Positions 31,603-56,354 of a stretch of DNA of 64,000 nt are shown here, piece by piece; the first letter of the stretch is position 1; every line of letters starts with the position of its first letter. This DNA comes from Nitrososphaerota archaeon. Its GTDB lineage: Archaea; Thermoproteota; EX4484-205; JAAOZP01. The stretch is from positions 160,001 to 224,000 of the forward strand of contig JAAOZP010000012.1 in the NCBI GenBank assembly GCA_011605725.1, read 5' to 3'. Under the pieces are notes generated by a model. That model had not been told where the DNA came from. It did not search any database and worked only from the letters and a program-made list of their open reading frames with translations. A program made the position numbers and the translations under genes.

Positions 31603-31962
31603 GAAGTCGAACTCTATTTTTCCATACTCCATTGTCGTCGTGCTGACGACTATCTTGTGAAGCCCTGGCTGCAGGCCCCCGGGCTTTTCAACAGTGAATT
31701 TAATTCTATCTCCGACAGTAAAGAGGGTTGGAGTCTTGGCGAACTCCTCTGCCTTCACCACCACGTCGCCTTTCTCTATAGTTATTTTCTCCAGAGGAAT
31801 CTCCTCACCGTCTACTGTAAGCCTGAAACCTCCTTCAATAGTACCCGACCCAAGCCTGTTTAAAAGGGAGAAACTGAAGCCAAGCACGTTTCCTTTTTCG
31901 TCGACAACATTTTTCAAAGACCCCTTTTCGTACAGCTGTCTCAACATGAATGCGGGAATCAT
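31585..31962 (-). CDS. Small beta-sandwich hypothetical protein (possibly DUF6379-like)
   Basis: IPAFMLRQLYEKGSLKN..GFSFSLLN..LTVDGEEIP..GGLQPGLHKI; TATA on - strand near 31990. Confidence 0.65.
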   Translation of the reverse strand: MIPAFMLRQLYEKGSLKNVVDEKGNVLGFSFSLLNRLGSGTIEGGFRLTVDGEEIPLEKITIEKGDVVVKAEEFAKTPTLFTVGDRIKFTVEKPGGLQPGLHKIVVSTTTMEYGKIEFDFSDNIS

Positions 31963-32119
31963 TTCGATTAGAATAAGCCTTTACATCAATATAAAGTTTT
32001 CTTGTGGGCCGTCAATGAGCAGTGTAGATTTTTCGAATAAAAGACTTTTAAAAACATTTTGCAACCTAGCCTAGAACAGCCTTTAACGTTATATATAGGT
32101 TTAATATTGTCATATTTTC

Positions 32120-35998: not shown

Positions 35999-36030
35999 TT
36001 TACATATGCTAATACCCGGTCTTTAAGGAG

Positions 36031-36043
36031 GAAATTTTAAATA
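36031..36043 (+). promoter_or_regulatory. BRE/TATA box
   Basis: GAAAT-TTTAAATA, 26 nt before ATG 36070. Confidence 0.55.
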
Positions 36044-36069
36044 CTTACCTCAATATTTTGAAAACAGGT

Positions 36070-37074
36070 ATGAAGAGTCTGAATATGGCGGTTATTGGTT
36101 GCGGCAACATCGCTAACTACGCGCACCTACCAAACCTGCTGAAAACAGGACAAAAATTGGTCGCCACATGTGATATAGTGGAGGAAAAGGCGAAGCAGGC
36201 TGCTGAGAAGTTTAAAGCCGACAGGTTTTACACGGACTATAGAAAGGTCCTAGAATTAAAGGATCTTGATGCAGTCATAATAGCTACTCCACCCGATACT
36301 CATAAGGAAATAGCTGTAGACGCGGTGAGAACCAACAAGCACGTATTTCTGGAGAAGCCTTTAGCGGCAAACCTGGAGGATGCATATGAAATTTACAGCC
36401 AGTGGAAGAGAAGCAATGTAAAATTTGCAGTCGGCTTCTGCTTAAGGCACCACGGGATGTTCAAGTATGCTAAGGAACTCGTTGAAAACAATACTGTTGG
36501 AGAACCAGTTGCACTGTGGAGAATAGCAATAGGGACTGCTATCGGCGTTCTACCTCCGATGGGATGGCTTACAGACAGGGAAAGGAGTGGTGGAATGGTG
36601 GTTGAAAACTCTATTCATATGATAGATGCGTTCAGATGGTTCGCTGGCGACATCGCTTCAGCCTTAGCACAGTATAAAACGGAAAGGATTGGAATAAACA
36701 TAGAGGATAATGCTTACATAGTGTTCACTCATCGAAACAATGCTTTTTCCAGCATATTGCAGAGCTGGACTGCTACTCACACCCATGAATCGTGGGGGAT
36801 AGTTGGTAAACAGGGTACTGTAAGCGTGAAAGGATATGTATTAGGGACTATGGAGGTCAGTAGTAGGAGTAGAGGCCTGGAGGAAGTAAAAATAGAGGAA
36901 GACCCCATAGTTATGTATGAGAAGGAGATGGAGGATTTCGTGAAAAGCATACTGGAGGATAAGCCGGTTTTCGCCACGCCCCTAGAAGGATTGAAGGCAA
37001 TGGAGGCAGCAGTGGCTGCTGAGAAAAGCAGTAAGGAAGGGAAACTGATTAAGCTACCTTTGATAGATTACTGA
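36070..37074 (+). CDS. Gfo/Idh/MocA oxidoreductase
   Basis: VIGCGNIA, HVFLEKP, GGMVVENSIHMID. Confidence 0.92.
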   Translation: MKSLNMAVIGCGNIANYAHLPNLLKTGQKLVATCDIVEEKAKQAAEKFKADRFYTDYRKVLELKDLDAVIIATPPDTHKEIAVDAVRTNKHVFLEKPLAANLEDAYEIYSQWKRSNVKFAVGFCLRHHGMFKYAKELVENNTVGEPVALWRIAIGTAIGVLPPMGWLTDRERSGGMVVENSIHMIDAFRWFAGDIASALAQYKTERIGINIEDNAYIVFTHRNNAFSSILQSWTATHTHESWGIVGKQGTVSVKGYVLGTMEVSSRSRGLEEVKIEEDPIVMYEKEMEDFVKSILEDKPVFATPLEGLKAMEAAVAAEKSSKEGKLIKLPLIDY

Positions 37075-37175
37075 GAAACGCAAGCATACTCTCCAAGTAA
37101 CATGATACAAGGGTTTGCCAATCGTTTAGCTGAAATGGATAAAACATATAAAGATTGGGCAGTAGTAGTCGCTAC

Positions 37176-39251
37176 ATGAGGATCAGTATAAACCGTTACG
37201 GTTTCACGCTGAACAACAAGAAGATTGAATTTCTATCTGGAGAGTTCCATTATTGGCGGGTTAAAAGAGAGAATTGGGATAAAATAATGAATAGACTGAA
37301 AGAGGCTGGTTTAGAGATCATCTCAACCTATATTCCGTGGGATTTTCATAAAATCGGTGACGAGTATGATTTTGAAGGAAACACTGATCCTCAAAGAGCG
37401 TTAAACCACTTTATAGATCTCGTTGAGAGAAAGGACTTCCTAATGATTATTAGACCTGGGCCTTACATATACGCGGAATGGAAGTACGGCGGGGTTCCCG
37501 AGGAAGCCTTCAGGCACCATAGGTTCAGCGAAGAATTCAAGAGGCTCGCATCAAACTATATAAGGGCAGTATGTCAGGAATCCATAGTTCCAAACCAAGT
37601 CACAAAGGGGGGACCAATATTCGTTCTTCAAGTGGATAATGAGGTTGACCCTTGGGTGAGATATTATAGGGAGCAGTTGGGATTATGCAGGGGGAGGGGC
37701 CCGTTTAAGGACTTTCTTATTGAAAAGTATGGAGATATTAGTAAGCTGAATAATGCTTGGGCCTCTAACTATGATAGCTTTGAAGAAATAGAGGCTTTTG
37801 AAGAACACCCTTTAGCAAAGGGGAGCATGCAGCCTCACAGCATGATTAGGTATCTTGATTACAGGGCCTTTCTTGACTGGTGTGTTGAAAAAATAATATC
37901 TTGGGCTAGAGACGAGTATAGGAAGAATGGCGTAAACATCCCGATGTTGGTGAACACTTACGACGACCCGGTTTTTCACGACTTGATAAAGCTAGGTAGA
38001 GTCGTAGACCTACCCAGTATGGACATATACCTGAAGAAGCATTTACCTGAAAGCGAAATGTTGAAGCTTTCATATTGGGTTAAGGCTTACGCTGCCTACA
38101 CGGTTTTCCCAATAGCTACGGAATTTCAATCCGGAATCTGGACTGATGCTCTTTACACGACTGGACCGATTGACGGCACGCATGAGAAGCTTCTAGGATT
38201 TTTTGCAATGGCGTGGGGTCTGAAAGGATGGAACTGGTACATGGCTGTTGGGAGAGACAATTGGACTTGTGCACCGGTAAACGAGTGGGGATTAATAAAT
38301 CCTGATGTTTATGAAGCTATTCAGGGACTCTCGAAAACGTATAAACTTGTTAAGCCCTACGTCCTCGAAAGACTAACTTCTGTTTCACTTGTCCACTATA
38401 GGCCGGAGATGCTGTTGAGACATCCTTCTGATGTGCTCTCTGATAAATGGAACTGGGGACGGTGCTTCTCCAGCCTTCATAAGGCTGGGCTGGATTTCAC
38501 CTTCTACAATCCTGAAGCCGACCGTGAAAGGAGGCCATTTATGATTTATGCTGGAGACGGGTTGATGTGGGCAAAAGATGCGGAAAACCTCGTCAAATCA
38601 TGCTACGAAGGATGCCACGTCATGTTTTTCCGAAAAACACCACTTATGGATTTCGCCGGCGAAGAAGTTAAAGAATTCTCAAAGATACCCAGGCCGATTG
38701 GAAGCAGGTCGGAGCCAAGGGGTTCACCAATGACTCTAGAAATCTCTTTCAGAAACCTTAGGAAGGAGATAAGTACATCAGGCTTCGAGTTCTTTAACCA
38801 GCAATGGGATGAAGCCATAACAGTATCCGGTGTCCAAGTGAAATCACCCTACGTTGACATCGCGCCGACGTTAAAGGAACACGTAGTAGGATTAACGAGA
38901 AAACTTGGAGAAGGCAGGATGACGATAATCGGACTGGACCCAAGCCCTTGCTTGCTGGAATTCCTCATAGAGGCCTTCAACATCAAGCTACCGGCGAGAA
39001 CAACCTCATACATGTGTTATGCTTCGCTGCATAAGGATGTTGAAACAGAGTCAAGATACGTAGCTTTCGCAATAAATGCTGCGCCATATAGACAAATCGT
39101 TTCAATAAGCCTGAACTTGCCTGCCGGAAACTATAATTTTAGGGAGTTAAAATCAGGAAAAGAGGGGACTATAGAAGGAGGAGAAGTAGAGCTACGTCAG
39201 CCGATAGGCCCCGGGGATGCGGAGGTAATCGAATTCATTAGGAAAAAATGA
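37176..39251 (+). CDS. GH35 beta-galactosidase-like enzyme (archaeal GlmA-like architecture)
   Basis: SGEFHYWR, TYIPWDFH, IRPGPYIYAEW, QVDNE, TEFQSG, GWNWYM; TATA at 37141-37152 favours ATG 37176. Confidence 0.88.
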   Translation: MRISINRYGFTLNNKKIEFLSGEFHYWRVKRENWDKIMNRLKEAGLEIISTYIPWDFHKIGDEYDFEGNTDPQRALNHFIDLVERKDFLMIIRPGPYIYAEWKYGGVPEEAFRHHRFSEEFKRLASNYIRAVCQESIVPNQVTKGGPIFVLQVDNEVDPWVRYYREQLGLCRGRGPFKDFLIEKYGDISKLNNAWASNYDSFEEIEAFEEHPLAKGSMQPHSMIRYLDYRAFLDWCVEKIISWARDEYRKNGVNIPMLVNTYDDPVFHDLIKLGRVVDLPSMDIYLKKHLPESEMLKLSYWVKAYAAYTVFPIATEFQSGIWTDALYTTGPIDGTHEKLLGFFAMAWGLKGWNWYMAVGRDNWTCAPVNEWGLINPDVYEAIQGLSKTYKLVKPYVLERLTSVSLVHYRPEMLLRHPSDVLSDKWNWGRCFSSLHKAGLDFTFYNPEADRERRPFMIYAGDGLMWAKDAENLVKSCYEGCHVMFFRKTPLMDFAGEEVKEFSKIPRPIGSRSEPRGSPMTLEISFRNLRKEISTSGFEFFNQQWDEAITVSGVQVKSPYVDIAPTLKEHVVGLTRKLGEGRMTIIGLDPSPCLLEFLIEAFNIKLPARTTSYMCYASLHKDVETESRYVAFAINAAPYRQIVSISLNLPAGNYNFRELKSGKEGTIEGGEVELRQPIGPGDAEVIEFIRKK

Positions 39252-39388: not shown

Positions 39389-39922
39389 TCAAGTAACCAG
39401 CAGCAGCCCAAAGTATCTGGGCTTTTCTCTACGGGTTTTCACCACATCTATTTTGAAACCTGCTCCCCTCGCTGTCGCATAGACGTCTATTCCGCAAGCC
39501 TCCATCGATGGCCTTGCAAGCTCCGGATGAACACAATTCTTCAAGTTGCACTCCTTGCAAAGGGGGCAGGGTCCCGATGTAAGCCCGAACGCAGAGTAAT
39601 ACCCTGAGAGAAATGCCTCCCGCTCAAGACTTGCAACCACTCTATGCACTTTTTCCCATCCCGGCTCGAAGCGCAGCAATATGGCAGAGTTGTAACCGCT
39701 TAGGACACGCCTCATCTGCTCCGGAGTTGGCGAGTAAGGAGGACACGTAAGGCGTTTACCATACCCGTCACAACCATACTGGCATTTAAGCCTAACCCAG
39801 TCCCTTACCACCACGTCGCCAGCTTTAATTACCTTTGCCTCAGCCGCCCCGAGCCTTATCGCTATTTCGCAGAGCTCTTCCAGACTTTTAGATACAGCCA
39901 TAAAATTAAGTTTACCTGACAA
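39389..39922 (-). CDS. DUF2284-type Cys-rich metal-binding protein
   Basis: LKCQYGCDGYGKRLTCPPYSP, GPCPLCKEC, ARPSMEACGIDV. Confidence 0.85.
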   Translation of the reverse strand: MSGKLNFMAVSKSLEELCEIAIRLGAAEAKVIKAGDVVVRDWVRLKCQYGCDGYGKRLTCPPYSPTPEQMRRVLSGYNSAILLRFEPGWEKVHRVVASLEREAFLSGYYSAFGLTSGPCPLCKECNLKNCVHPELARPSMEACGIDVYATARGAGFKIDVVKTRREKPRYFGLLLVT

Positions 39923-40852: not shown

Positions 40853-43747
40853 TCACCAGGTGGCTTTAATGCACGCTTTTAAGCCAGCCGGTATTTCAAC
40901 CCTCCAGCGTCCCTTTTCAAACGAGGCCTCTAAGGATCCTTGGCTAGCCTTAATGCTTACTTCTGCTGTCGGAGGCACGAATGAGGGCATTACTGCTTCT
41001 CCATTGAGGCCACTGGGTAAGTCCACCCAAAGCGTGAAACTTTTTTCAGCTCGCCTCCATCTGACATTTACCGTACCCTTGGGTGTCGGAAAACATCCAT
41101 GCGCCCAAACCAGGTCAACGGGCTCAGGCGCTATAATCACGCCACTCGTAATAACGTCTTTTGGTCTAACGCCGAGCACAAAGCTGGTTAGGAAAAACGC
41201 CGGCATGGCGCTCCAAGCGTGACAGTGGCTCCTGGTTTTTGGCGATAAAATCTCCCAAGTGGTTGTTGCACCATAATCCAGCATAGCACCCCATTCCCGC
41301 CTTATTAAATCCAATGCTTTTCCAGCCTCGCCGTCCCTAACACATGCTTCAATAAGAAAGGCTAGTGCAAACGGGCTTCCAAACTTGACAAAGTCGTCTG
41401 GCCAATCGTAGATATACTTGCGCACAATGTTTTTCCTGTCATCCTCAGCCACGTCGCAAAGATAAATCATCGTGTGGGTCTGCAGGCTGAAAACCCTGCT
41501 CCTCGTACCGTCATGATGAACCGCGTCAACGTAAGCTTTCCTCTGCTCATCCCAGAGATACTTGTTGATTGCCTGTTTAACCCTTTCAGCGAGCATTTCA
41601 AACTCTTTAGCGTCATCCTCCTTGCCTATTTTTCTCGCGATAGTTGCTGAACGCCTATATGCTTCTACAAGCATCGCGTTTTGATGTGTCACTACACCTC
41701 TACTGGGAGTATCCATCGGAGCCCAGTCAAGCATGTTCCAAGCCTCGATCTCCATCAGACCATCGTAACGGATAAACTTCTCAGCAATATTGCGCATCTG
41801 TTTTAAAACAAAAGGATAAACTTCTTTCAAAAAAGCCTCATCCCCAGTGTATCGATAGTATTCTTCACATGTCCAAACCCAGAGCAAAGCCCATGCAGTC
41901 AAAACATTCTGCCATCCACTGGGTACCTGGCTCTCAACCAACGGGGAACGGAAAAGAGATTCCCCGGCTAGAAGCCAGCATCTTCTCGCCAGGGCATAAC
42001 AACCATAAGTAGCGTAAGTAATTAGAGCCTCGTGTCGAGCATCACCCACCCAGAAGGTTTGTTCGTAGGCTGGGCAGTCTACATACGTGTCCTCGCTGCA
42101 GAGACGCAAAGTATACTTGCACATTCTCCAAATATTGTTAAGCCTCCAATCGTTGCAAAGGAATTCTCCAACCTCTTCGAAAGGATAAGTGTTTAAAAGA
42201 CATCTTACAAACTTGATGCACACAGGCATCTTCCCACCCTCAGGGAACCTGATTGTTAGAATCAAGTATCGGAACCCTCGGCGAACAACGCTCGTGTAGC
42301 TTTGCCACCCTTCTTTAGTAGTGTAACGCAGCACATTGTTAAGGCCGAAAGTATGCTGTATGTCGAAACAATAATCCTCTCTAGGATGTATCGCTTCAAA
42401 CCCGTAGAAATCAAGCTTAACGCCCCTTGGAGCCTCGATTTCAAAATCTATGAAGCCGGCTAGCTCACGGCCGAAATCTATTAAAAGCTCAGCATCGCCA
42501 TTCTCAGGAGGCCATATGATTGCAGCCTCATCGTTCGCGGAACAAAGATTTCCAATGCCTTCAGAGAAAAGATTCTCCTTAACTTCCTTTGCGAAAACGA
42601 TTCTTGCAAAAACATGGTCTGATGCGAAATACTCTGGCGCGACGGGTTGAACTAAAGCTGTTTTAAGAACGTCTTCAACCGTTCTCGCATCCCAAATAAT
42701 CCTGAAACAGTCCTCATCACGCGACTGAAACGGTCCTGCTATTGCCCACGAGGTACCAGCATTACCCAACGGGTTTTCAAACTCCAGGTTTTCACCTTCC
42801 CATACTGTTGTAAACCACCAGTCGTGATAACGCCCAGTAACATCGAACACAACCAGGTTCTCACCTTTCCTAAGCTTGAGCAGCACCGTGTTACCGTCTA
42901 CCGACATGTCCATACCGTTAACCCTGACACGCCGCGCACCCAGACCAATCCCATTCACACCAGTAACCTTTACTTCTTTAGCTTCAGAAGTTTTCACAAC
43001 TACGATGGCTAATCCAATTATTTCCTGAGGATTTGACAACCGGTCTCCAGGAACGAGGCTTGGACGCAAGTCAAAACTATACACTATGCTGGGAGGAGAA
43101 ACCACGCGTGTGCGCAATACCCGCACGGGATATACTGGTTCATTAGTGAGAAAAGGTATTGGTCTTTTAAACAGGTTAACCCACGGCTTCACCGAAACCT
43201 CGGTAAGCTCGACTGCATTCTGCCAATTGCTGTCGTCGAAGTCAGGATGCTTCCACTCCGGATCTGCTGACGAGTCATAATGTTCAACGAAACCCTGTTG
43301 GCACGATATGCGTGGGGTATGCTGGTCGTATGCTGCGCTAATGCAAACTTTCCAGTTTCGATCTGTCGCGAGAATAATCTCCCTTCCACTCTTAGTCTTC
43401 ATGCTTAACTGTGCAAGTAAGCCGCCGCGTCCCAGTGGATACTGGAAATTGGTTTCACCAGGTTGCCATACGATTATGGAAACAGTATTTACTAGACCAG
43501 CATTTAAATACGGCTTAACATCATACACGTCGTAAAACCATGAATGCTGCCATCCTCTTATAGGACCATTACCAATTCTTTTGCCGTTTATGAAAAGAAC
43601 GTAGCGTGCGTCAGCAGTTATTTTGAGTTCCGCCGCCTCAACATCTAACGGCACTTCAAAGCTCTTACGCGCATAGACGTAAAGGTTTCGCGATGCATCC
43701 TTATTGTTATTCACCCAGATCCATTTTGCTTTCCATTCTTCCGTCAT
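40853..43747 (-). CDS. GH78 alpha-L-rhamnosidase
   Basis: WKAKWIW, ITADARY, IDFGRE, RRGFRY, VDCPAYEQTFWVGD, GATTTWE, SHCHAWS. Confidence 0.92.
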   Translation of the reverse strand: MTEEWKAKWIWVNNNKDASRNLYVYARKSFEVPLDVEAAELKITADARYVLFINGKRIGNGPIRGWQHSWFYDVYDVKPYLNAGLVNTVSIIVWQPGETNFQYPLGRGGLLAQLSMKTKSGREIILATDRNWKVCISAAYDQHTPRISCQQGFVEHYDSSADPEWKHPDFDDSNWQNAVELTEVSVKPWVNLFKRPIPFLTNEPVYPVRVLRTRVVSPPSIVYSFDLRPSLVPGDRLSNPQEIIGLAIVVVKTSEAKEVKVTGVNGIGLGARRVRVNGMDMSVDGNTVLLKLRKGENLVVFDVTGRYHDWWFTTVWEGENLEFENPLGNAGTSWAIAGPFQSRDEDCFRIIWDARTVEDVLKTALVQPVAPEYFASDHVFARIVFAKEVKENLFSEGIGNLCSANDEAAIIWPPENGDAELLIDFGRELAGFIDFEIEAPRGVKLDFYGFEAIHPREDYCFDIQHTFGLNNVLRYTTKEGWQSYTSVVRRGFRYLILTIRFPEGGKMPVCIKFVRCLLNTYPFEEVGEFLCNDWRLNNIWRMCKYTLRLCSEDTYVDCPAYEQTFWVGDARHEALITYATYGCYALARRCWLLAGESLFRSPLVESQVPSGWQNVLTAWALLWVWTCEEYYRYTGDEAFLKEVYPFVLKQMRNIAEKFIRYDGLMEIEAWNMLDWAPMDTPSRGVVTHQNAMLVEAYRRSATIARKIGKEDDAKEFEMLAERVKQAINKYLWDEQRKAYVDAVHHDGTRSRVFSLQTHTMIYLCDVAEDDRKNIVRKYIYDWPDDFVKFGSPFALAFLIEACVRDGEAGKALDLIRREWGAMLDYGATTTWEILSPKTRSHCHAWSAMPAFFLTSFVLGVRPKDVITSGVIIAPEPVDLVWAHGCFPTPKGTVNVRWRRAEKSFTLWVDLPSGLNGEAVMPSFVPPTAEVSIKASQGSLEASFEKGRWRVEIPAGLKACIKATW

Positions 43748-43807: not shown

Positions 43808-44983
43808 CTAAGAATCGTAAATCACGCTGGTCTTATAGACATCTGGACCGAAGATCTTGTAGACCACGAGGTCCTCTTTCCCAGTGTTAACTATTTTATG
43901 GGGCTGCGTTGCAGCATCAGCAGATACGAAGACCTCGTCCAAGCCTGGGTTTTGACCTTGAACCGAGATGTTTCCAATCCTGCCCTCCCCCCTCCAAACA
44001 AAGGCGAGGTAAGCATTTTTTTCAACACTTTCAACAGTTTCTCCAGGGAAGATTTTGGTCTCCTTTCCGCAGAATTTTCTCGTTCTGTCAGGAGGAAACA
44101 CCCAGCGTTCAACACCCTTGCCCTCAAACTCGGAAGCCTCAACCTTCGTCGGAACAACATGATACTTCCTGTAGAAAAACGGGTCTCGCGACCTCTTCCA
44201 GTCGATCAGCTTAGCAACAGCCTCTTCATCAGGAAGGCCTCGCAACATGTCTTCCCTTGGAATCCTCCTTCCCCCACATACTGCTTGAAGAATATTGTAA
44301 ACATCAGACTCCTCTTGAATCTCTAGTGTTAAAGCTGTCCCGGGAGCATGAGGAACCCCGGCGAAAACGTAGAAACCCTCCCCAGTATTCAACCTGTAGG
44401 CTGGGGAAAGATCCAGAACCCTATCGTCGTCCCACTTTTTCAACAGCGGGATCAAGTCTTCCTCTCCAACGTGTGGGTGAACAGCTATGTGAGAATAGGG
44501 GAATGGCCCCTTTTCCACTGTTTCTAGGAAGTAATAAGCCTCGTCTTTCCCATTCATGTTCCAGTATTTTTTCGCATCCTCCTCTCTTGCATGCACATGC
44601 CACGGTATGGGGGATCCGATGTCAAGAACCTTAGTTAAAACCCCGAACCGGTTGCCGTGTTCCACCGCATACTTGTCGCCGAGAAGCTCGCCGGGGAGAA
44701 TTTTAAACGCATCCCTAAGAGAAAGCTTTGCATGCTTCTGAGTGAAGGATATGAAGCTTAAACCTTCGTTTTCAACCTTAACTGGGTTAACGGCTTCAAC
44801 CGATGACGCTAGCCATCTTTCACAAATCCAGCCTCTTGAGGCGCCAGCATAATAGTCTCTCAGCCCGAGTCTTCCCATTCCCGGATACAGGGTTCTAGCC
44901 ACGAAGGAGGGAGCTAGTCTCAAAACCCCGCCTGTTGCACTAAGCTCCTCTCTGAGAAGTTTTTCCTCGTCTTTAAAGCACAT
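43808..44983 (-). CDS. Cupin-fold sugar-phosphate isomerase (type I phosphomannose isomerase-like)
   Basis: ERWLAS, TKVLD..IPWHVH, GKDEAYYF, GVPHAPG..LEIQEESD. Confidence 0.75.
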   Translation of the reverse strand: MCFKDEEKLLREELSATGGVLRLAPSFVARTLYPGMGRLGLRDYYAGASRGWICERWLASSVEAVNPVKVENEGLSFISFTQKHAKLSLRDAFKILPGELLGDKYAVEHGNRFGVLTKVLDIGSPIPWHVHAREEDAKKYWNMNGKDEAYYFLETVEKGPFPYSHIAVHPHVGEEDLIPLLKKWDDDRVLDLSPAYRLNTGEGFYVFAGVPHAPGTALTLEIQEESDVYNILQAVCGGRRIPREDMLRGLPDEEAVAKLIDWKRSRDPFFYRKYHVVPTKVEASEFEGKGVERWVFPPDRTRKFCGKETKIFPGETVESVEKNAYLAFVWRGEGRIGNISVQGQNPGLDEVFVSADAATQPHKIVNTGKEDLVVYKIFGPDVYKTSVIYDS

Positions 44984-45022
44984 TTTTCACCTCAAACTGT
45001 TAAGGTGGCGCTTTAAAAGTTT

Positions 45023-45853
45023 TCACGTGTTGAGGCCGAGAAGCCTCATTAATTCCTCGGCTCTTGTGAAATCAGGTATTATCGCGTCGGCCCCAGCATC
45101 CATAAGCCGTTTCCTCTTTCTCGGGTTTAACCCTATTCTTCTAACTTCATCCGAGGCGACACCAATGGCTATTGAGCCCCTGGCTTTAGCGCTTCTAATT
45201 TCAACAGGACCGTCTCCAACCACCAGCAGCTCCCTACCATGCAGATTGTTTTCGCTTAAAATCCTCTCAATAATCCTCTCCTTAGAGTTTGCCTCAGTGT
45301 AGTCAAGCGCACCGTATATCCCGCCCCTAAAGTATTCCGTGATTTTGAGAGCAGTGGCCTCTCTTAAAACATACTCATGATCAGTACCGCTTGCCAAATA
45401 CATTACCACGCCCTTTTCATAGAGCTCCTGCAAGAAGCTCCTGGATCCACATATCATCAGGTCGTCTGGGTTTAATTCCCCATTAAACAGTTTTCTAAGC
45501 CTCTCCTCCACGAGCAGCAACATCCGCTGATTATATATTCTCTTATACTCGTAAGCATCCTTAGGGTTTTTCGAGATCCCGTACCTACGAACAGCCTCAG
45601 CAAGCCACTCCATCTGCCTTATGGTTAACATCCCGGTTGAATAGTCGACGTATTCTCTAACCTCTCTCTCTATCTCCGGGGTTGGAGGATTACCGTTGCA
45701 AATCATTTCTATCATGAGTGGAATCATCACATCCTCCCACCCCTGCCTTATCACCGATATTGTTCCGTCGAAATCTATTAACGCATACTTTATGCGTCCC
45801 ACCATAGAATTGAAATCCTGATTGAGAATCTCAAACCATTGGCTCACGGCCAT
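45023..45853 (-). CDS. HAD-superfamily phosphatase
   Basis: DFDGT, LASGT, K, VGDGPVE motifs. Confidence 0.88.
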   Translation of the reverse strand: MAVSQWFEILNQDFNSMVGRIKYALIDFDGTISVIRQGWEDVMIPLMIEMICNGNPPTPEIEREVREYVDYSTGMLTIRQMEWLAEAVRRYGISKNPKDAYEYKRIYNQRMLLLVEERLRKLFNGELNPDDLMICGSRSFLQELYEKGVVMYLASGTDHEYVLREATALKITEYFRGGIYGALDYTEANSKERIIERILSENNLHGRELLVVGDGPVEIRSAKARGSIAIGVASDEVRRIGLNPRKRKRLMDAGADAIIPDFTRAEELMRLLGLNT

Positions 45854-46890
45854 TCCCCTCCTTTTGAAACCTCATCGAATTTAGCCAATATTTCTCCAGG
45901 GGAAGCTGTTCCAGTAGTGTTTAGCTTTTTAAGAATAACTCCGGCAGCTAGGCTTGCAACTATGCCTGCTTCAACAGGGTCAGCTCCCCCCGCTAAGCCT
46001 GCACCCACTGCAGAGATGAAAGTGTCGCCAGCTCCCACAGGGTCTATTGGCGGCTCTGTTGGCGCAGCTGGAACATGATGGGAGCCGGAGCCTGTAACAA
46101 TTAAGCACCCCTTCTCACTTAACGTTATGTATACTGGTCGCTTCGCCTTCTCCTGCAGCTCTCTTCCTATATGTAGAAGCTCATCCATATCTACTTCAAG
46201 AGGGTTTCTAGATGGTCGTATTGCCCTCACAGCCTCCATCCGATTTGGCTTTAAAACCATGTTTCTGAAAAAACCTATACGCTCCCTCGAGTCAGCTATG
46301 AAAACCCTGTCAGGATTTTTCTCAGCAAGCTGAATCAGGCCGCTCCTAACATTTTCCGTAACCACACCGTTCAGAGACATCTGATCCTCTATTATCACTA
46401 AATCCACTTTTTCAACCGCCTCCTTAACATTTTCAATAATTTTTTCCTCCAAGCTACTGCTTAACGGACTGTAGTTTATAAAGTCAAGCCGGGAATCCTC
46501 CTGTTGAGAATCCCATCCGCACAGTATCGGCTTAACATAGGTCGGCGTAACTCTTTCGGGAGACATTATTAAGAAGTCCAGCCTAACCCCGTTTTCCCTC
46601 AACTTCTCGTTCAAGAGTCTTCCACGCCAGTCGTCTCCAATAACGGTCACCGCAAAAACATCTTCTAAACCTAAAGCCTTAACGTTGCAACATATGTTTC
46701 CTGAGGCACCTGGGGAATACGTTTCCCTGACGACTGGACGTGTATAACGTGGTGTTTCCCTAGAGAGTTCTGAACGCGTCATGTCAGCATACCAATAAAC
46801 GTCTAGAGCATAGTCTCCAATCACCATGCCCTTCAATTTTTTAAAGGAATCCAGTATTTCAACCAGCCTAGAGCGTTTCAGCCCTTCCAT
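45844..46890 (-). CDS. PfkB kinase of the RfaE/HldA (heptose-7-phosphate kinase)-like subgroup
   Basis: IGDYALDVYW..SRETP..PVVRE..PGASGN, LKPNRME, ITLSEKG, DPVGAGDT. Confidence 0.85.
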   Translation of the reverse strand: MEGLKRSRLVEILDSFKKLKGMVIGDYALDVYWYADMTRSELSRETPRYTRPVVRETYSPGASGNICCNVKALGLEDVFAVTVIGDDWRGRLLNEKLRENGVRLDFLIMSPERVTPTYVKPILCGWDSQQEDSRLDFINYSPLSSSLEEKIIENVKEAVEKVDLVIIEDQMSLNGVVTENVRSGLIQLAEKNPDRVFIADSRERIGFFRNMVLKPNRMEAVRAIRPSRNPLEVDMDELLHIGRELQEKAKRPVYITLSEKGCLIVTGSGSHHVPAAPTEPPIDPVGAGDTFISAVGAGLAGGADPVEAGIVASLAAGVILKKLNTTGTASPGEILAKFDEVSKGGEWP

Positions 46891-48547
46891 TCAACTCCAG
46901 CCTCCGAACTAGAGAAGCCTCTAGCATTCTGCATAAAACATGGTATATTACGGAGTGCGTCTCCTGCACTCGACTCGTATCGGATGCAGGCGCCCTGATA
47001 GCGATGTCAGAGATTTTCGCCAGCATTCCTCCGTCCCTCCCTGTTAAAGCAATCACAACTAAGCCTAATGCTTTAGCAGTTATCGCAGCATAGATAACAT
47101 TCTGAGAATTACCGCTCGTGCTTATGCCCATCAGAACATCCCCTTTTCTCGCCAAGGAGTATAGTTCCTGTGCGAATGCCATGTTTCTAGTTGGATTATC
47201 GTTTTCAACAGCACTCGAGAGAGAATGGTTTGAACCTAGAACTAGCACGCGTAGGCCCTCCTCCAGGCTTTCCACCAAGAGACTACTGTAAGGAAGCCCT
47301 TCAAACAGCCTCCTACGATGAACCGGCATGGGTCTCTTAAGCTCAAAGGATTTCGAAAGCTCTGCTGAAATATGGAACGCATCCGCGAAACTGCCACCAT
47401 TACCGCATAGGAACAGGGTTCCTCCGACTTTGAGACGCATGTCAATAACTCTAAAAGACCTAACCAAGTCTTCTACGATGACATTCAAATCCGGATGAGA
47501 CCTGGCGAATTCTTCGACAATTTTCCCCACTGACGGCTCAAGACCCTCGGCTTGGCTTCTCAGCGTGGATCCTATCCCACTAGGCTGAAAAACAACATTT
47601 TCCTCCGTTATCATCCTAACCAAGAGATGACGAAGATTAGGTATTGTAACAACATGGTCGCCCGTTATGTGAAAGCCTTTACCCCCCAGCGAGGTTGGTC
47701 TTATAACAATGTTTTTCAGAGGCCTGTAATAATACTCCTCCTCATCCTTCTTTCTGGGACGGGTATACTCCCTTATGGGTTTCAGATCAAAATTTGCGGC
47801 TGTAAACCTCTCCACTTTAAAACCAAGGTTTCTTGCAATGGATAATGCTTTAAGAAAAACTTCAGGACCGATGACGGCTGACCCGAAGTTCAAAAAAACT
47901 CCTTCATCCAGACGGCTGACAGTGTAAACGTATTTCTTGAAATCAATACCACTTGCCTCACCTATGGCGGAGAAATCGCAAGCAGGATGCTGATGGATTA
48001 TGTCCGTTCCAAGAGCCACGTGCACGGTAAATGGTATTCCCAGTCTGTAAGCATGATAGAGAACGCTGTACTTCTTAAACTTGAAACGCTCGTCTTCAGC
48101 AATCATCCTCCCTAGTGATTCACCGTAGCCTAAGCCGTCGCGAACACCACGTTGAATCGCCAAGTTCATTAACAGCCCTGTCTCCTCAGCCATTCCGAAT
48201 GTCCCATCTTCTATGCTTGTAGCAACATCCTCGCTGGTCTCGCCGATTAAAGCAATTTCAAAATCGTGTATCGATGCTGCACCGTTAGACGCTACATGGC
48301 TCACCACACCCCGCTCCATAAGATCTATGAGCACCGGCCCTAATCCACATTTTATAACGTGCGCCCCCATCATCCAGAGAACCGGCCGCCCTTTTCTCCT
48401 CGCATCAACGATCATTCTTGCAACCTCAACCAGCTCCGGGCTTTCAAAAGGCGGCGGAGGCGACTCCGGGTCGACCAAATCCTTCAGCTTCACAAGGTTC
48501 TTTCTCTCAGATATCGGGTAGGTCTTAATTCTGCTGAAATCCAGCAT
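46868..48547 (-). CDS. Fusion of an uncharacterised DHS-like-fold N-domain and a GmhA-type SIS phosphoheptose isomerase
   Basis: C-terminal CGNGGSFADAFHISAEL, GISTSGNS, LTGRDGG, RVQETH..YH; N-terminal MMGAHVIKCG..SNGAASIHDFE..NFGSAVIGPEVFLKA. Confidence 0.8.
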   Translation of the reverse strand: MLDFSRIKTYPISERKNLVKLKDLVDPESPPPPFESPELVEVARMIVDARRKGRPVLWMMGAHVIKCGLGPVLIDLMERGVVSHVASNGAASIHDFEIALIGETSEDVATSIEDGTFGMAEETGLLMNLAIQRGVRDGLGYGESLGRMIAEDERFKFKKYSVLYHAYRLGIPFTVHVALGTDIIHQHPACDFSAIGEASGIDFKKYVYTVSRLDEGVFLNFGSAVIGPEVFLKALSIARNLGFKVERFTAANFDLKPIREYTRPRKKDEEEYYYRPLKNIVIRPTSLGGKGFHITGDHVVTIPNLRHLLVRMITEENVVFQPSGIGSTLRSQAEGLEPSVGKIVEEFARSHPDLNVIVEDLVRSFRVIDMRLKVGGTLFLCGNGGSFADAFHISAELSKSFELKRPMPVHRRRLFEGLPYSSLLVESLEEGLRVLVLGSNHSLSSAVENDNPTRNMAFAQELYSLARKGDVLMGISTSGNSQNVIYAAITAKALGLVVIALTGRDGGMLAKISDIAIRAPASDTSRVQETHSVIYHVLCRMLEASLVRRLELNGRAETL

Positions 48548-48672
48548 CTGCGTTTAAAGCCTTCCTTAAAGCCATATATTAACTTAATTCTTTAGTGCGA
48601 AGTAGAAATGGGTTTAAGCTTATACTGTTGGGCGCTGAGGAGCTTTTTAAACCGGGTCTACGCTTATTCTCC

Positions 48673-48686
48673 AAACCCTTTAAATA
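48673..48686 (+). promoter_or_regulatory. BRE/TATA box
   Basis: AAACCC-TTTAAATA, 23 nt before ATG 48710 (leaderless-type spacing). Confidence 0.6.
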
Positions 48687-48709
48687 GGCAGGAAAACCGT
48701 TAGATAACT

Positions 48710-49675
48710 ATGAGGACCGTTAAAATAGGAGTAATCGGAGCAGGTTCCCACGCGAATAACGTGCATTATCCTTCACTCTCCATGATAAAGGAGGCTGAGG
48801 TTAAGGCAGTATGCGACCTTAACCCGAATAGGCTTAGGATGACAGCTGAAAAATACTCGATACCGAGCCAGTATACAGATTATAAAAGTATGTTGGAGAA
48901 AGAGGAGTTGGACGCCGTGTACCTGATAATGCCTCCTCACCAACTATACGATATAGCGGTCGACTGCCTTAAGCAGGGTCTTAACCTTTTCATCGAGAAG
49001 CCGCCTGGCATAACTCGCAGTCAAACTGAAAGCCTTGCTTGGTATGCTGAGAAACACGGGTGTAGAACCATGGTTGGCTTTAACAGAAGGTTCATACCAC
49101 TCATGAGAAGAGCCAGGGAGATTGTTGAGGAGAGAGGATTCATAAACCAGTGCGTATCCACTTTCTACAAGAATATTCTTTCCCAAGAACCTCCCTACTA
49201 TTCTGGAGCGGTGGATGTTTTAACCTCCGACGTAATTCATGCTGTAGACACTTTGAGATGGATGGGGGGCGAAGTTAGTAATGTATTCAGCTCCGTCCGA
49301 AGGCTTTTCGTACCTTACGATAACAGTTTCAACGCAATGATTACGTTCCAAAACGGTGCAGTCGGCTTCTTGATGAGTAATTGGGCAGCCGGTTCAAGAG
49401 TACACGTCTTCGAAATGCATAGCAAAGGCATATCTGCCTTTGTGAACCCGAATGACAGAGCCCTGATATACAGAGACGGTTCATCCGAGCCTGAAGTAAT
49501 ATCCACGTTCGAAGCGGCTGAAAGCACTGAGTTTCACGTATACTACGGGTTTCTAAGTGAAAACATGCACTTCATCAGATGCGTGATAGAGGACAGAGAG
49601 CCTGAAACATGCTTCAGGGACGCCGTTAAAACAATGGAGCTTGTGGAGAAGATCTATGCGAACGCGCCTCGTTAA
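48710..49675 (+). CDS. Gfo/Idh/MocA oxidoreductase
   Basis: VIGAGSHA, LFIEKPPG, VGFNRRF, DVIHAVD. Confidence 0.92.
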   Translation: MRTVKIGVIGAGSHANNVHYPSLSMIKEAEVKAVCDLNPNRLRMTAEKYSIPSQYTDYKSMLEKEELDAVYLIMPPHQLYDIAVDCLKQGLNLFIEKPPGITRSQTESLAWYAEKHGCRTMVGFNRRFIPLMRRAREIVEERGFINQCVSTFYKNILSQEPPYYSGAVDVLTSDVIHAVDTLRWMGGEVSNVFSSVRRLFVPYDNSFNAMITFQNGAVGFLMSNWAAGSRVHVFEMHSKGISAFVNPNDRALIYRDGSSEPEVISTFEAAESTEFHVYYGFLSENMHFIRCVIEDREPETCFRDAVKTMELVEKIYANAPR

Positions 49676-49686
49676 ACAGCGATAAC

Positions 49687-51804
49687 CTAATCAAAAGGTT
49701 TTTGGCAAGATTCTAGGACAATGACCTCATACTCTTGGAGAACTGGCAACTTTAACACCACGTTCTGATCAACCTCTTCCCAATCCAGCTCCATGTTTAA
49801 CCTCAACGCCTTAGCGTAACGTGGCTTATCAAACCCGTGAAGAACTATTTTTAAATTCCTGATTAGTAGGGTTGATTCTATAGGCCTAGTCATCTCGCCA
49901 GTGAAGTTCACCAGATGTATTAGTATTCTACGTTTATCTGGCTGGTGTCTAAGAGTAACTTCAACAGTCTGAGGACAATCATCAAGCGTTACCAGTTTTC
50001 TAGACATGAGGCGGACAGCGTTAGCAATTATCCTCCTGTAGTCAGGGTTATGATAAGAATAATAGTGCTCAAAGAAGTTTCCAGCGAGGTAGAGGCAGCT
50101 TCCTCTTCCATACTTGTTAATCAGGATCGCGGGATTCTTAGATAAGGGAGGAAGCCTCACGTATCTAGCGGGCATTTTCTCATTATACATGGCTATCGCC
50201 CTTGACGTTACGGGGATCACCTCAACCCCGAAAGCCGGGCATGGAAGAAGCTTTGTGCTCACCCCCTCTACAAAAGGATGGTCGCCGACGATTGACATGT
50301 AGTCCATCATCATTGGGCCGAAGACACCTCTTCCAGCCTTAACGCCGAATACCTCGGCCAACCTGAACTCTTTAAGCATCACTCCGTATTCATCATATCT
50401 TGAACATTCAAAGCTTGCAATAAGGTTACCTCCATCCCTTACGTACTCCCTGATAGTGTCGGCACAATCATTAGAAATGCATGCAGAGTTTGGAGCAATT
50501 ATTAAGTCATACTTGCGAAGATTCTCCAGCTTTACCGACTCCTCATCAATAACGTCGAAGAGAACGTGGGACCTCACCAGTAGCTCGTAACATCCTTGAA
50601 AGCCAGCGAAGTAGTCTGCAGCCTTCCTCTCCTCGATTTTCACCTCCTTCGGATGGAAGTCCGCGAAAGGAATGCTCGCCCTGTAGAAATCAGCCGTCCT
50701 CTTGGACCAGAAGAGCCCAACCCTAGCGATCGACGTAGTGTGCTCCAGATACTCGGCGTTTCCAATTATAAAGCGGTTCATCTCCCCGGCAGCCAACGCT
50801 CCCGGCCCTTCAGCTGATCTCAACGATACACCATACCACGGATTAGCACCGTTAGCAATCGTCTCTGCATAAAGAAGCTTCGTCTCAGCTGGAGTTAAGA
50901 GATACTCATCCCACCCCTTATTAGCACCGGCTATGAAGACAACCGTCGGCTTACCGCCGGATTGTGTTTCCAGGAGCTTAGCCGTCATGCCTGCTTTCCA
51001 AAGCGGTTCAGCCCTCAGGTCATAGTATAGGAAGCCACCCTCAGCCCCCAGCATATCCTGGTAAGATATAAGCCTCCGGTTATCCCTTGCCTCAATCCAA
51101 GTCGGCCACAGGCCTGCAGAATTCATGTAGATTATCGCGTTCTGCTTAACCTTTTTCAGCGTCTTTTCAGCATCTCTAAGGTACTCAGCTATACTGTCAT
51201 ACCTAAACTCTACGAACTTCCTCCAGGAAGGGTCTTTCCAATCCTCCTCGCGGGGAATATCAAATCCATACTTCCGCTTGAACTTCTCTTGGCAGTTCTT
51301 GCAATAGCAAGTTCCCGGATAGTAGGCCGGGCCATCTAAAAATATTCCATCGATATCGTAGGAAGCCAGATCCTCGATACCTTGAAGGGACCACTCTCTC
51401 CAGGAAGGGGAGTTTACGCATGGAGAGTTTCCGGAGCCGTAAAGAAAATCTATTATCTTGCCTTCTTTATTCACCTGAAGCCAGTCCGGATGCTGCTTGC
51501 CAAACTCAACGTTTATCCAGTGCACATTGTAATAGACCAGGACCCTGATTCCTCTTTCACGAGCTTCCGGCAAGTATTCCCCCAAAAAATCCCTCGGCAT
51601 GCTTCTTGCTATCCTAGTCTTAAAGTAGAAGACACCCTTCTCCCCTCCCCAAAAATCGCTGCAACCAAGATGCTCAGCGTTAAAGCCAAGCCTACTCTTG
51701 GCTTCAGCAAGCTCAGCCGGATTTATTTTCAGAATCTCCTCGGCATCAGGTAAAGCGAAGTCCGCGATAGTAAGAGACTTGCGCCACCATTGTTCATCAG
51801 ACAT
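49687..51804 (-). CDS. Putative glycoside hydrolase (GH42-like TIM barrel plus trimerisation domain)
   Basis: RDFLGEY..GIRVLVY, HPDW, PCVNS, YDIDGIFLD, CYCKNCQEKF, KYDLIIAPN..YVRDGGNLIAS. Confidence 0.75.
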   Translation of the reverse strand: MSDEQWWRKSLTIADFALPDAEEILKINPAELAEAKSRLGFNAEHLGCSDFWGGEKGVFYFKTRIARSMPRDFLGEYLPEARERGIRVLVYYNVHWINVEFGKQHPDWLQVNKEGKIIDFLYGSGNSPCVNSPSWREWSLQGIEDLASYDIDGIFLDGPAYYPGTCYCKNCQEKFKRKYGFDIPREEDWKDPSWRKFVEFRYDSIAEYLRDAEKTLKKVKQNAIIYMNSAGLWPTWIEARDNRRLISYQDMLGAEGGFLYYDLRAEPLWKAGMTAKLLETQSGGKPTVVFIAGANKGWDEYLLTPAETKLLYAETIANGANPWYGVSLRSAEGPGALAAGEMNRFIIGNAEYLEHTTSIARVGLFWSKRTADFYRASIPFADFHPKEVKIEERKAADYFAGFQGCYELLVRSHVLFDVIDEESVKLENLRKYDLIIAPNSACISNDCADTIREYVRDGGNLIASFECSRYDEYGVMLKEFRLAEVFGVKAGRGVFGPMMMDYMSIVGDHPFVEGVSTKLLPCPAFGVEVIPVTSRAIAMYNEKMPARYVRLPPLSKNPAILINKYGRGSCLYLAGNFFEHYYSYHNPDYRRIIANAVRLMSRKLVTLDDCPQTVEVTLRHQPDKRRILIHLVNFTGEMTRPIESTLLIRNLKIVLHGFDKPRYAKALRLNMELDWEEVDQNVVLKLPVLQEYEVIVLESCQKPFD

Positions 51805-51895
51805 ACTCTCGTGCTAAGCTTTTGAAATATTAAACCTTTTCCAGAACAATCGGCTGCAAAAACTTATATTTCAACAGCTGGCGTTATGGGGAGAG

Positions 51896-53017
51896 ATGCT
51901 GCCTGCTGAAAGGCTTGACGCCGCGTTTGAAGGCAAGTATTCAGATGCAATACCGTGGTTTGCTGACCTTACTTACTGGTATCACTCGCACGAGGAAATG
52001 GGAACCTTGCCTACTAGGTATAGGGGCGAGGGAAGAATAAACCTTTACATGGACATGGGTTGTGGTGCGCATGAAGAGCTCTACCGACCAGTTTTCAGGA
52101 TAAAGCGTAGACAGGTGGAAATCAATGTTTACGAGACCAAGGATCATGACGGAAGCATTGTCAGGCACGAAGTTTTTCAAACACCGGTAGGAGAGTTGAG
52201 ACGAGTAAGTAAACACTCATTCAAATCCCACAGTACTGCGACTATAGAGCACCCCGTTAAAACAGAGAGAGACTTAAAGGTCCTGAGATTCATATTGAGA
52301 GACCAGATTGTAGAGAAGGATCCTGAGATTTACGAATGGCAGTCGCGAGCGATGCAGAAATGGAATGGATGGGGAATTGTAAGCTCTCTACCACCGAGAA
52401 CACCGTTGATGAGGATGATAGTGGAATGGGCCGGCTTCTCAAACACTGTAAAACTCCAGTGGAGGTCTAGAGAAGAGTTTGACGAGACAATTCAAGTCAT
52501 GTGCGAGGCGGATGACCCAGTTTATGAAGCAGTCTCAGAAGCACCCGCCAAGTATGTTTATTTCGGGGAAAACCTTTCTAGCGACATGGTTAGTCCACGT
52601 CTTTTCAAAACCTACTTGGAACCCTACTACAGGAAGCGTTCTCTTGAGCTTCACTCTAAAGGGAAGAAGATTTACCTACATATAGATGGTAGCCTTAGAG
52701 GGTTGTTGCCGTTGCTTGCTCAAACCGGCATAGACTGTGCACAATCGCTTACACCAGCGCCGGCAGGCGACGTCGACGTTAAGGATTTTAGGAGGCTCGC
52801 TGGCAATAGCATAGTACTATGGGGAGGATTACCAGGTGTTCTATTCAGTGAAAAATATCCCGTTGAAATGTTGAGACGGATTCTTGAAGACATAATAGAA
52901 ACATATATAAATGATTATAAGTTTATAATAGGAGTTGCTGACCAGGTGCCACCGGATGGAGAGATAGACAGGGTGAAAATGGTTAGCGAGATAGTGAATT
53001 CCAAGGGCAGAAGATAA
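51896..53017 (+). CDS. UroD/MtaA-like family protein
   Basis: TPVGEL, EHPVKT, GENLSSDMVSP, LHIDG, LTPAPAGD, WGGLP, VADQVPP. Confidence 0.82.
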   Translation: MLPAERLDAAFEGKYSDAIPWFADLTYWYHSHEEMGTLPTRYRGEGRINLYMDMGCGAHEELYRPVFRIKRRQVEINVYETKDHDGSIVRHEVFQTPVGELRRVSKHSFKSHSTATIEHPVKTERDLKVLRFILRDQIVEKDPEIYEWQSRAMQKWNGWGIVSSLPPRTPLMRMIVEWAGFSNTVKLQWRSREEFDETIQVMCEADDPVYEAVSEAPAKYVYFGENLSSDMVSPRLFKTYLEPYYRKRSLELHSKGKKIYLHIDGSLRGLLPLLAQTGIDCAQSLTPAPAGDVDVKDFRRLAGNSIVLWGGLPGVLFSEKYPVEMLRRILEDIIETYINDYKFIIGVADQVPPDGEIDRVKMVSEIVNSKGRR

Positions 53018-56201: not shown

Positions 56202-56354
56202 CTTCCGAAGGAAGCGAGAGTAGTCTCCATGATAGCTGTAGGCTATTCTGGTGAGAAAAAGGAGCCCGTGTCAAACTGGAAATCCCTACAGGAGATCGTT
56301 GGATACAACCACTGGCAGCACAGGCTTTTTAAAATCTTAAGGAACCAGGCTTAA
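56202..56354 (+). pseudogene. C-terminal remnant of a nitroreductase gene
   Basis: LPKEARVVSMIAVGYSGEK..KSLQEIVGYNHW aligns by eye with IPEGLRVLCTVSVGYPDEK..RPLEEVTHWEKY of the intact gene at 63190-63708; starts directly after CGCGCGCGC. Confidence 0.7.

Follow-up and report, generated by a model that had tools for sequence, protein, structure and literature searches.

Positions 160,001 to 224,000 of contig JAAOZP010000012.1, from the genome of a Nitrososphaerota archaeon (GCA_011605725.1), were analyzed as a single window of 64,000 nucleotides. The window carries a compact operon whose products resemble enzymes of bacterial heptose phosphate metabolism. Its host, an archaeon of sediments or hot springs, is represented by a 2.23-Mb assembly in 20 contigs that is 93% complete, and all genome-wide absences given below hold within that completeness. 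An SSU model match of 1450 bits marks the genome as archaeal. A first-pass annotation made from the sequence alone had described four co-oriented, overlapping or closely spaced genes (an unknown domain fused to GmhA, an RfaE/HldA-like kinase, a HAD protein, and a cupin) followed by a glycoside hydrolase family 78 (GH78) gene. The open reading frames (ORFs) bear out this layout at the minus-strand coordinates below, and Pfam and NCBIfam models uphold the domain calls. The "unknown" domain is indeed fused to GmhA, but it already has a name, the GSU2086 family (NF052581), though that family is uncharacterized. The operon, the gene that follows it, and the transketolase gene of the window are as follows.

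46868-48547, minus strand: GSU2086::GmhA fusion gene, gene 1 of the operon, 559 amino acids (from the ORF list)
47630-48544, minus strand: GSU2086-family domain, N terminus of the fusion, residues 2-306 (NF052581 match)
46892-47491, minus strand: GmhA-like SIS domain, C terminus of the fusion, approximately residues 353-552 (PDB alignment and TIGR00441)
45844-46890, minus strand: HldA-like PfkB kinase gene, 348 amino acids (PF00294, with rfaE_dom_I as best NCBIfam)
45023-45853, minus strand: C1-capped HAD gene, 276 amino acids (PF00702 and PF13419, DxD at D27/D29)
43808-44983, minus strand: phosphomannose isomerase (PMI)-like cupin gene, 391 amino acids (weak Cupin_2 and TIGR00218 matches)
40853-43747, minus strand: GH78 alpha-L-rhamnosidase-like gene, 964 amino acids (Bac_rhamnosid6H)
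13951-15993, minus strand: transketolase gene, 680 amino acids (PF00456, 156 bits)

The fusion and kinase genes overlap by 23 nucleotides and the kinase and HAD genes by 10, while gaps of 39 and 60 nucleotides separate HAD from cupin and cupin from GH78. A TATA-like box lies approximately 20 to 30 nucleotides 5' of the fusion gene ATG, and the cupin ATG is preceded by a Shine-Dalgarno-like GAGGTGA. From this arrangement, we infer an operon of the form fusion-kinase-HAD(-cupin). The 60-nucleotide gap 5' of GH78 holds AT-rich TATA-like boxes, and because of these, GH78 probably has its own promoter and forms a separate transcription unit.

Operon proteins and the conserved three-gene unit

The SIS domain has its best PDB matches among phosphoheptose isomerases (1tk9, 5i01, and E. 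coli 2i22; E of ~1e-27), and alignment to these three shows that it retains CGNGGSxADAxHxxAEL, GISTSGNS, and QExHxxxxH. In phosphoheptose isomerases, the catalytic Glu and His lie within the CGNGGS..H..AE and QExHxxxxH segments, and GISTSGNS is the phosphate loop. With every catalytic motif intact, the domain is predicted to be of the sedoheptulose-7-phosphate/heptose-7-phosphate isomerase type, with a TIGR00441 score of 126.6 bits that falls under the equivalog cutoff of 209. The kinase matches PF00294 at 121 bits; its best NCBIfam model is rfaE_dom_I (160.8 bits, under the cutoff of 345), and its best PDB match is Burkholderia HldA (4e84, 9e-15). It aligns end to end with the kinase domain of E. 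coli HldE at 29% identity, and both contain an N-terminal GDxxLDxYWY block and the GAGD motif.

The HAD protein matches PF00702 and PF13419 and has the DxD nucleophile motif (D27/D29), and it reached no specific NCBIfam model, including those for GmhB and HAD-IIIA. Its AlphaFold2 model (pLDDT of 91) carries a helical C1 cap, and the top TM-scores belong to Lactococcus lactis beta-phosphoglucomutase (TMt up to 0.75), a capped HAD-I fold; the capped HAD-I phosphatases AlnB, BT2127, and CbbY are equally close structural neighbors. The cap and the HAD-I resemblance argue that the protein is not GmhB-like, in line with the first-pass remark that it was not obviously of GmhB type. Judged from this model, it would be a catalytically intact phosphatase or mutase, and two traits of the beta-phosphoglucomutase type, a capped HAD-I fold and the DxD motif, are both present. 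The family has approximately 1,200 members, in Bathyarchaeia and Anaerolineae. Of the remaining two proteins, the cupin scores 38 bits with TIGR00218 (manA; cutoff of 116), matches Cupin_2 weakly, and weakly matches the type I phosphomannose isomerases 1qwr and 1zx5; its WHVH...E...H positions presumably recall the metal ligands of PMI. GH78 scores 174 bits with Bac_rhamnosid6H and matches the N and C rhamnosidase domains as well.

Comparison across genomes separates a core from local additions. The fusion gene is present in 8 of 17 genomes of the genus, a patchy distribution confined to its larger genomes, and the cupin gene is found in exactly the same 8. Synteny in the other 7 reads GNAT-GH78-cupin-HAD-PfkB-fusion / GFO-GHL6-UroD, and the GH78 part of it is restricted to the genus. 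Outside the genus, only fusion-PfkB-HAD is kept, at 55 to 68% identity, in a second archaeal family (locus L030), in Bathyarchaeia (L013), and in a bacterium (L011). The fusion architecture itself is shared by more than 7,800 relatives in Bathyarchaeia and Chloroflexota, and the nearest homologs outside the genus belong to Bathyarchaeia and then to Chloroflexota. A scan of species genomes yielded 73 loci with a GSU2086 gene, of which 55 have the GSU2086::GmhA fusion, 53 a PfkB kinase, and 41 a HAD of the module type, and the genes are nearly always arranged as fusion, kinase, HAD; the kinase and HAD are themselves fused in L182 and L187. Within this set, the cupin is confined to loci of the genus itself, and its family occurs elsewhere without the module.

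The conserved unit is therefore three genes, encoding the [GSU2086 domain::GmhA] fusion, the HldA-like PfkB kinase, and the capped HAD, and its arrangement is not due to chance: it is syntenic in the genus, and the core recurs in other archaea and in Chloroflexota. The cupin is a genus-specific addition to the operon and was rejected as a core member of the module, because outside the genus the cupin family and the module occur apart. Of the genes named in the first-pass annotation, then, fusion, kinase, and HAD persist together beyond the genus, and cupin and GH78 are not conserved with the module there.

Several variants of these gene sets were seen along the way. The cupin family is small and uncharacterized (~630 proteins, mostly in Bathyarchaeia/Thermoproteota), and on an unrelated bacterial contig a cupin gene is again accompanied by a GHL6-like hydrolase and a URO-D-like gene, a trio also present at positions 43808-53017 of the window. 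Tandem GSU2086 genes or two-copy proteins (P0121, P0124, and P0137) occur in several lineages, including L193 and L197 (around 9001). In L040 (4547-6442), a tandem GSU2086 pair is followed by PfkB and HAD genes, a SIS gene is absent, and upstream of the pair lie two sulfatases and a GH3.

A substrate other than heptose could be proposed for this gene set, such as mannose- or fructose-6-phosphate or a phosphorylated mannoside set free by GH38; the GmhA-like domain would then act as a phosphomannose-type isomerase. The SIS and kinase scores lie under the heptose equivalog cutoffs, GH38 (an alpha-mannosidase family) is the commonest neighbor of the module, and a PMI-like cupin joined the operon in this genus, all of which would fit. 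We consider this reading unlikely. Every GmhA-specific motif is retained, the kinase has its nearest solved structure and its best NCBIfam model in HldA/HldE, and the GSU2086 domain of the fusion is 40 to 52% identical to stand-alone proteins of clusters for ADP-heptose and glycosyltransferase family 9 (GT9), with the invariant residues shared, which argues for the same substrate class.

The GSU2086 domain in a genome without nucleotide activation

Nucleotide activation and the later steps of ADP-heptose synthesis were searched for genome-wide. Three genes of cytidylyltransferase fold are present, encoding NMNAT, PPAT, and a 147-amino-acid protein. The last (best model, rfaE_dom_II) is also the best genome-wide match to HldC (TIGR02199), and it was ruled out as a missing HldC by its score of 84 bits against a cutoff of 181.5 and by its presence in 16 of 17 genus genomes, with or without the module. 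That distribution marks it as a housekeeping gene, probably of the archaeal FAD synthetase type. The NTP_transferase of the window, the only one of the genome's four NTP_transferase genes scanned against HddC (NF049965), scored 49 bits against a cutoff of 300 and was likewise rejected as HddC. Genome-wide, the best match to HldD (TIGR02197) reached 148 bits (cutoff of 274.6), and GT9 (PF01075) had no match. Among the 73 related loci, HldC, HldD, and GmhB (searched with the E. coli protein) were found in none, and GT9 was found in 4.

Within its completeness, then, no nucleotide activation step was found in the genome by these searches. The first-pass annotation had noticed the lack of a nucleotidyltransferase, an epimerase, and a glycosyltransferase at the locus, and this lack extends genome-wide for HldC-type, HldD, and GT9 genes, with the window's NTP_transferase not being HddC. 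The counter-case that it had named, an NDP-heptose pathway completed by genes elsewhere in the genome, did not materialize, as HldC, HldD, and GT9 were not found.

In this setting, the least familiar component is the N-terminal domain of the fusion, which matches NF052581 at 419.5 bits (cutoff of 250) over positions 2 to 299 of the 301-position model. A search of 1.84 billion representatives returned 514 GSU2086 clusters at E <1e-30, most of them stand-alone proteins of ~300 to 330 amino acids. A 67-member alignment contains approximately 35 nearly invariant, mostly polar residues, including H63, K66, H94, D95, E97, T104, S105, E106, E122, H176, N220, E229, K233, R275, and R283. The AlphaFold2 model of the domain (pLDDT of 96) has as its top Foldseek matches 3c2q, 7cmc, 6lrg, and 1dhs (TM of 0.5 to 0.6, 13 to 17% identity, probability of 1.0), representing an LOR/SDH protein (3c2q), deoxyhypusine synthases (DHS), and the ornithine cyclodeaminase domain of AgrE/ArgZ. 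The genome encodes a separate true DHS (444 bits), and no DHS equivalog model is among the NCBIfam matches of the fusion, which scores 15.9 bits with TIGR00300 (cutoff of 410). Profile alignment to the genome's DHS pairs GAHVIKxG with the GAMVPAG loop and NGAxxIHD with TGANLYHD; in hhalign, the two align with 31% probability, over the N-terminal half only.

Enzymes of the DHS fold keep a nicotinamide cofactor bound and give the hydride back in the same catalytic cycle, and sugar epimerases use the same chemistry. From its modeled fold, the GSU2086 domain is probably an NAD-type redox epimerase acting on a heptose phosphate and standing in for HldD, with C6 as the most likely site of epimerization (D,D to L,D). 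Because no ADP-heptose is made here, and given the 40 to 52% identity to the bacterial domains, its substrate would have to be a sugar phosphate or free sugar; GmhA, its preferred partner by both fusion and adjacency, points to heptose-7-phosphate. The first-pass suggestion of new chemistry for making a heptose accordingly shifts to this domain, which is the key question at the locus and is itself found in bacterial ADP-heptose operons.

In Geobacter sulfurreducens, the genes flanking GSU2086 are hldE and gmhA, and all three are listed among the genes whose disruption affects growth on electrodes (PMC5585712). The same transposon sequencing study gives GSU2086 no description beyond that of a hypothetical protein within an operon for sugar biosynthesis (PMC5585712). 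Across 66 bacterial loci from many diderm phyla, GSU2086 is adjacent to GmhA in 24, to PfkB/HldE in 17, to HldC in 14, and to GT9 in 12. Its fusion partners are SIS (in both orders), HldA-like PfkB, HAD, HldC, an ARMT1 phosphatase together with HldC, and itself in tandem; the fused HldC is genuine (203 bits against the cutoff of 181.5). HldD is the only canonical pathway step never seen fused to GSU2086. Among 50 GSU2086-bearing genomes of many phyla, only 3 have HldD above its cutoff, and the scores are bimodal (at least 394 bits or at most 152 bits). Co-occurrence was counted in two samples, the first being the 131 HldC-positive genomes among 151 of the class around Geomesophilobacter and the second being 121 genomes of the phylum around a Nitrospiraceae genome.

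Sample 1 (n = 131): GSU2086 only, 61; HldD only, 44; both, 7; neither, 19
Sample 2 (n = 121): GSU2086 only, 90; HldD only, 20; both, 1; neither, 10

The corresponding odds ratios are 0.05 and 0.006. Exclusivity of this kind, seen in two phyla, would be expected of GSU2086 and HldD if either could supply the same step. A role for GSU2086 as a replacement for GmhA or GmhB was ruled out, since it is fused or adjacent to both kinds of enzyme, and an HldD-like gene beside GSU2086 in locus L053 proved to be a generic short-chain dehydrogenase/reductase (SDR; 108 bits) rather than HldD.

One archaeal-looking contig (L042; JGI 3300025311 Ga0209343_10001525, 327-11381) carries co-oriented genes for an HldE-like protein, an ARMT1 phosphatase::HldC::GSU2086 fusion, a split transketolase, a transketolase-transaldolase fusion, and GT9, followed on the opposite strand by two STT3 oligosaccharyltransferase genes; no GmhA gene is visible in the available stretch. 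By its gene content, this block looks like a self-supplying cluster for heptose N-glycosylation.

The GSU2086 domain might instead not be an epimerase of this kind, serving as a regulator or scaffold for GmhA or performing nickel-pincer hydride chemistry (as a dehydrogenase or as a 2-, 3-, or 4-epimerase that yields a different heptose). For TIGR00300/3c2q, the family nearest in structure, use of a nickel-pincer adenine dinucleotide has been reported (Desguin 2025, as cited in PMC13524815), and tandem GSU2086 copies exist. We give this alternative a low weight, because near invariance at roughly 35 polar positions favors catalysis over scaffolding and because the exclusive pattern with HldD points to an epimerization step. 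In addition, all 17 genus genomes were negative for LarC, and this genome has no LarE match above the cutoff; a nickel-pincer cofactor is therefore unavailable to this host, and it was rejected for the GSU2086 domain here, while other family members may differ. A LarA-like gene does lie outside the window (G000:C16:56052-56660, L125; Lar_N, 179 bits). Seven of the 17 genus genomes have it, each of which also carries the module, and its sequence identifies it as an apparent orphan enzyme of nickel-pincer type without a cofactor pathway.

Direction of the pathway

The three-gene module sits within an island of glycoside hydrolases plus a transporter, which flanks it at 27892-39251 and 48710-53017 of the window.

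27892-30339: GH38
32120-33430: major facilitator superfamily (MFS) transporter
33431-35998: GH116
36058-37074 and 48710-49675: two GFO oxidoreductases
37155-39251: GH35/42
49687-51804: GHL6/GH42M-like gene
51896-53017: URO-D-like gene

Across independent lineages, GH38 is the commonest other neighbor of the module, being adjacent and co-oriented in L145, L148, L150, L167, L174, and L013 (three Bathyarchaeia and two Chloroflexota, plus L013). Sugar ABC permeases or an MFS_2 transporter lie directly beside the fusion gene in L176, L179, L183, L186, L197, and L165, and a metagenomic relative has two sulfatases and a GH3 upstream. No glycan assembly genes accompany the module in the loci compared. 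The catabolic neighbors that the first-pass annotation had noticed are thus present both in the window and, as GH38 and transporters, recurrently in independent lineages, and together with the transketolase in the window they lend support to a catabolic role.

The window transketolase, which would produce or use up sedoheptulose-7-phosphate, was ruled out as a module-specific gene by its presence in 11 of 17 genus genomes. In four or five genus genomes, the matches to it do not start until query residues 13 to 26 and are interrupted by 1 or 2 in-frame stops, mostly TGA; its TTG start may have been placed too far upstream, or the stop-bearing copies may be damaged. Two other genes of the region were also noted. 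A 177-amino-acid protein (39389-39922), between the GH35 and GNAT genes, resembles the selenoproteins MbdU and ArsM-DUF2284 solely in their C-terminal, DUF2284-like part, at 126 to 130 bits, far below cutoff. A second PfkB kinase (56337-57347, 336 amino acids), 8 kb from the operon and of the ribokinase/ribose-1-phosphate kinase type, is unrelated to the HldA-like one.

The interpretation we favor, at a probability of roughly 40%, is a three-gene heptose-phosphate module without nucleotide activation, in which the GSU2086 domain is a heptose-phosphate epimerase and which is run catabolically in this archaeon. Neighboring glycosidases would release manno-heptose from bacterial glycans, the kinase would phosphorylate it at the anomeric position, as HldA does, and the beta-phosphoglucomutase-like HAD would shift the phosphate to C7. 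The fusion protein would then epimerize heptose-7-phosphate and isomerize the product to sedoheptulose-7-phosphate, which would be taken up by transketolase. The epimerase::isomerase and kinase::HAD fusions join consecutive steps of this order. The catabolic direction is more likely than biosynthesis of a cell wall sugar. Of the two directions that the first-pass annotation had offered, breakdown into sedoheptulose-7-phosphate has gained the support of the GH38 and transporter context, although the C7 substrates and the direction itself are what we infer from it.

The main rival is a biosynthetic pathway free of nucleotides, in which sedoheptulose-7-phosphate is isomerized by the GmhA domain, modified by GSU2086, phosphorylated at C1 by PfkB, and dephosphorylated at C7 by the HAD, yielding heptose-1-phosphate or free heptose for an unrecognized transferase or phosphorylase or for use as a solute. 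The gene set mirrors the GmhA, HldA, and GmhB steps, kinase::HAD and GSU2086::HAD fusions would fit a kinase followed by a phosphatase, and the bacterial GSU2086 proteins, with HldC and GT9, clearly serve biosynthesis. We nevertheless regard this rival as possible but doubtful. No nucleotidyltransferase accompanies the module in the 73 loci or the genome, nor does any other transferase apart from the few GT9 genes of those loci, which have no counterpart in the genome; the route would end in heptose-1-phosphate without a known acceptor; the neighbors are hydrolases and importers, not glycan assembly genes; the HAD is capped, unlike GmhB; and the patchy, island-borne distribution in 8 of 17 genomes suits an accessory trait of substrate use.

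Several observations weigh against the catabolic epimerase interpretation. The two fusions cited in its favor equally join consecutive steps in biosynthetic order (isomerase, epimerase, kinase, phosphatase), and a kinase and a phosphatase in one operon is biosynthetic logic, leading from 7-phosphate to 1,7-bisphosphate to 1-phosphate. SIS and kinase scores below equivalog cutoffs mean that a C6 or other sugar phosphate is possible as the substrate. Some fusion genes occur without the kinase and HAD (L009/L010, L164-L167, L173, L176, L183, and L186). The GH38 neighbors may be plain mannosidases, no heptosidase is known, and papers on such an enzyme or on the breakdown of heptose were looked for and not found. 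With respect to epimerization, the genomes counted for GSU2086 and HldD are related and nonindependent, so p-values overstate the exclusivity, and the two samples include genomes with both genes (7 and 1) and with neither (19 and 10). Bacteria that lack HldD can make do with D,D-heptose (PMC13252051), and exclusivity alone is therefore no proof of an epimerase.

No paper on the function of the GSU2086 family or on this module was found. The module is a real, conserved, and uncharacterized variant of the heptose-phosphate pathway, and the first-pass proposal of an undescribed, heptose-like pathway stands to that extent, with a gene set that is both conserved and heptose-like. A bolder and quite tentative version of the catabolic epimerase interpretation has two parts. 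The module would be the first catabolic route for manno-heptose of the lipopolysaccharide (LPS) type, running from heptoside through heptose, heptose-1-phosphate, and heptose-7-phosphate to sedoheptulose-7-phosphate. GSU2086 would be a new, non-SDR heptose-phosphate 6-epimerase that takes the place of HldD in most members of Nitrospirota, among relatives of Geobacter, and in many further diderms, so that epimerization would occur on the sugar phosphate instead of the nucleotide sugar.

For two decades, the ADP-heptose pathway has been regarded as fully worked out, and the intermediates of this pathway are innate immune agonists and antibiotic targets. If the proposal is correct, a widespread additional enzyme family that acts on a sugar phosphate and excludes HldD in whole phyla would revise this pathway for much of bacterial diversity. 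The module would also fill a gap in the recycling of heptose from the vast pool of dead Gram-negative envelopes, with abundant sediment heterotrophs (Bathyarchaeia, Brockarchaeota, and Anaerolineae) as candidate recyclers.

Comparison with known systems

Like the bacterial ADP-heptose pathway, the archaeal module has a GmhA-type isomerase with its catalytic motifs, a full-length HldA-like kinase, and an enzyme of phosphatase fold after the kinase, all encoded by translationally coupled genes. Unlike that pathway, it comes without an adenylyltransferase, an SDR epimerase, or a GT9 heptosyltransferase, its phosphatase is a capped HAD-I protein rather than the capless HAD-IIIA GmhB, it adds a domain of DHS fold, and it resides in an archaeon without LPS and in a catabolic context. 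With respect to the GDP-D-glycero-alpha-D-manno-heptose pathway (GmhA, HddA, GmhB, and HddC), the window's NTP_transferase, the one of four scanned, falls short of the HddC cutoff.

Another parallel, for the putative catabolic order, may be Leloir-type logic with a beta-phosphoglucomutase. HldA-type kinases make beta-anomeric phosphates, and the HAD model is closest to the L. lactis enzyme, so that a kinase followed by this HAD would give a coherent catabolic sequence. Unlike a clear beta-phosphoglucomutase, the HAD is equally near the plain phosphatases AlnB, BT2127, and CbbY, making the mutase role putative.

The GSU2086 domain shares its overall fold and aligned cofactor loop motifs with DHS and the LOR/SDH-type ornithine cyclodeaminases (AgrE/ArgZ C domain; TIGR00300), from which it is set apart by an identity of 13 to 17%, scores far below the family cutoffs, and a context of sugar phosphates rather than amines. 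Within NF052581, whose type member is G. sulfurreducens GSU2086, the fusion domain is a clear member sharing all invariant residues; unlike the stand-alone proteins of the family, it is fused to GmhA and occurs without HldC or GT9. Its proposed chemistry, in which a bound nicotinamide cofactor would briefly oxidize the sugar and then reduce it again, would be that of HldD (RfaD/GmhD), the ADP-L-glycero-D-manno-heptose 6-epimerase, carried out by a DHS-like rather than an SDR fold and probably on a sugar phosphate or free sugar.

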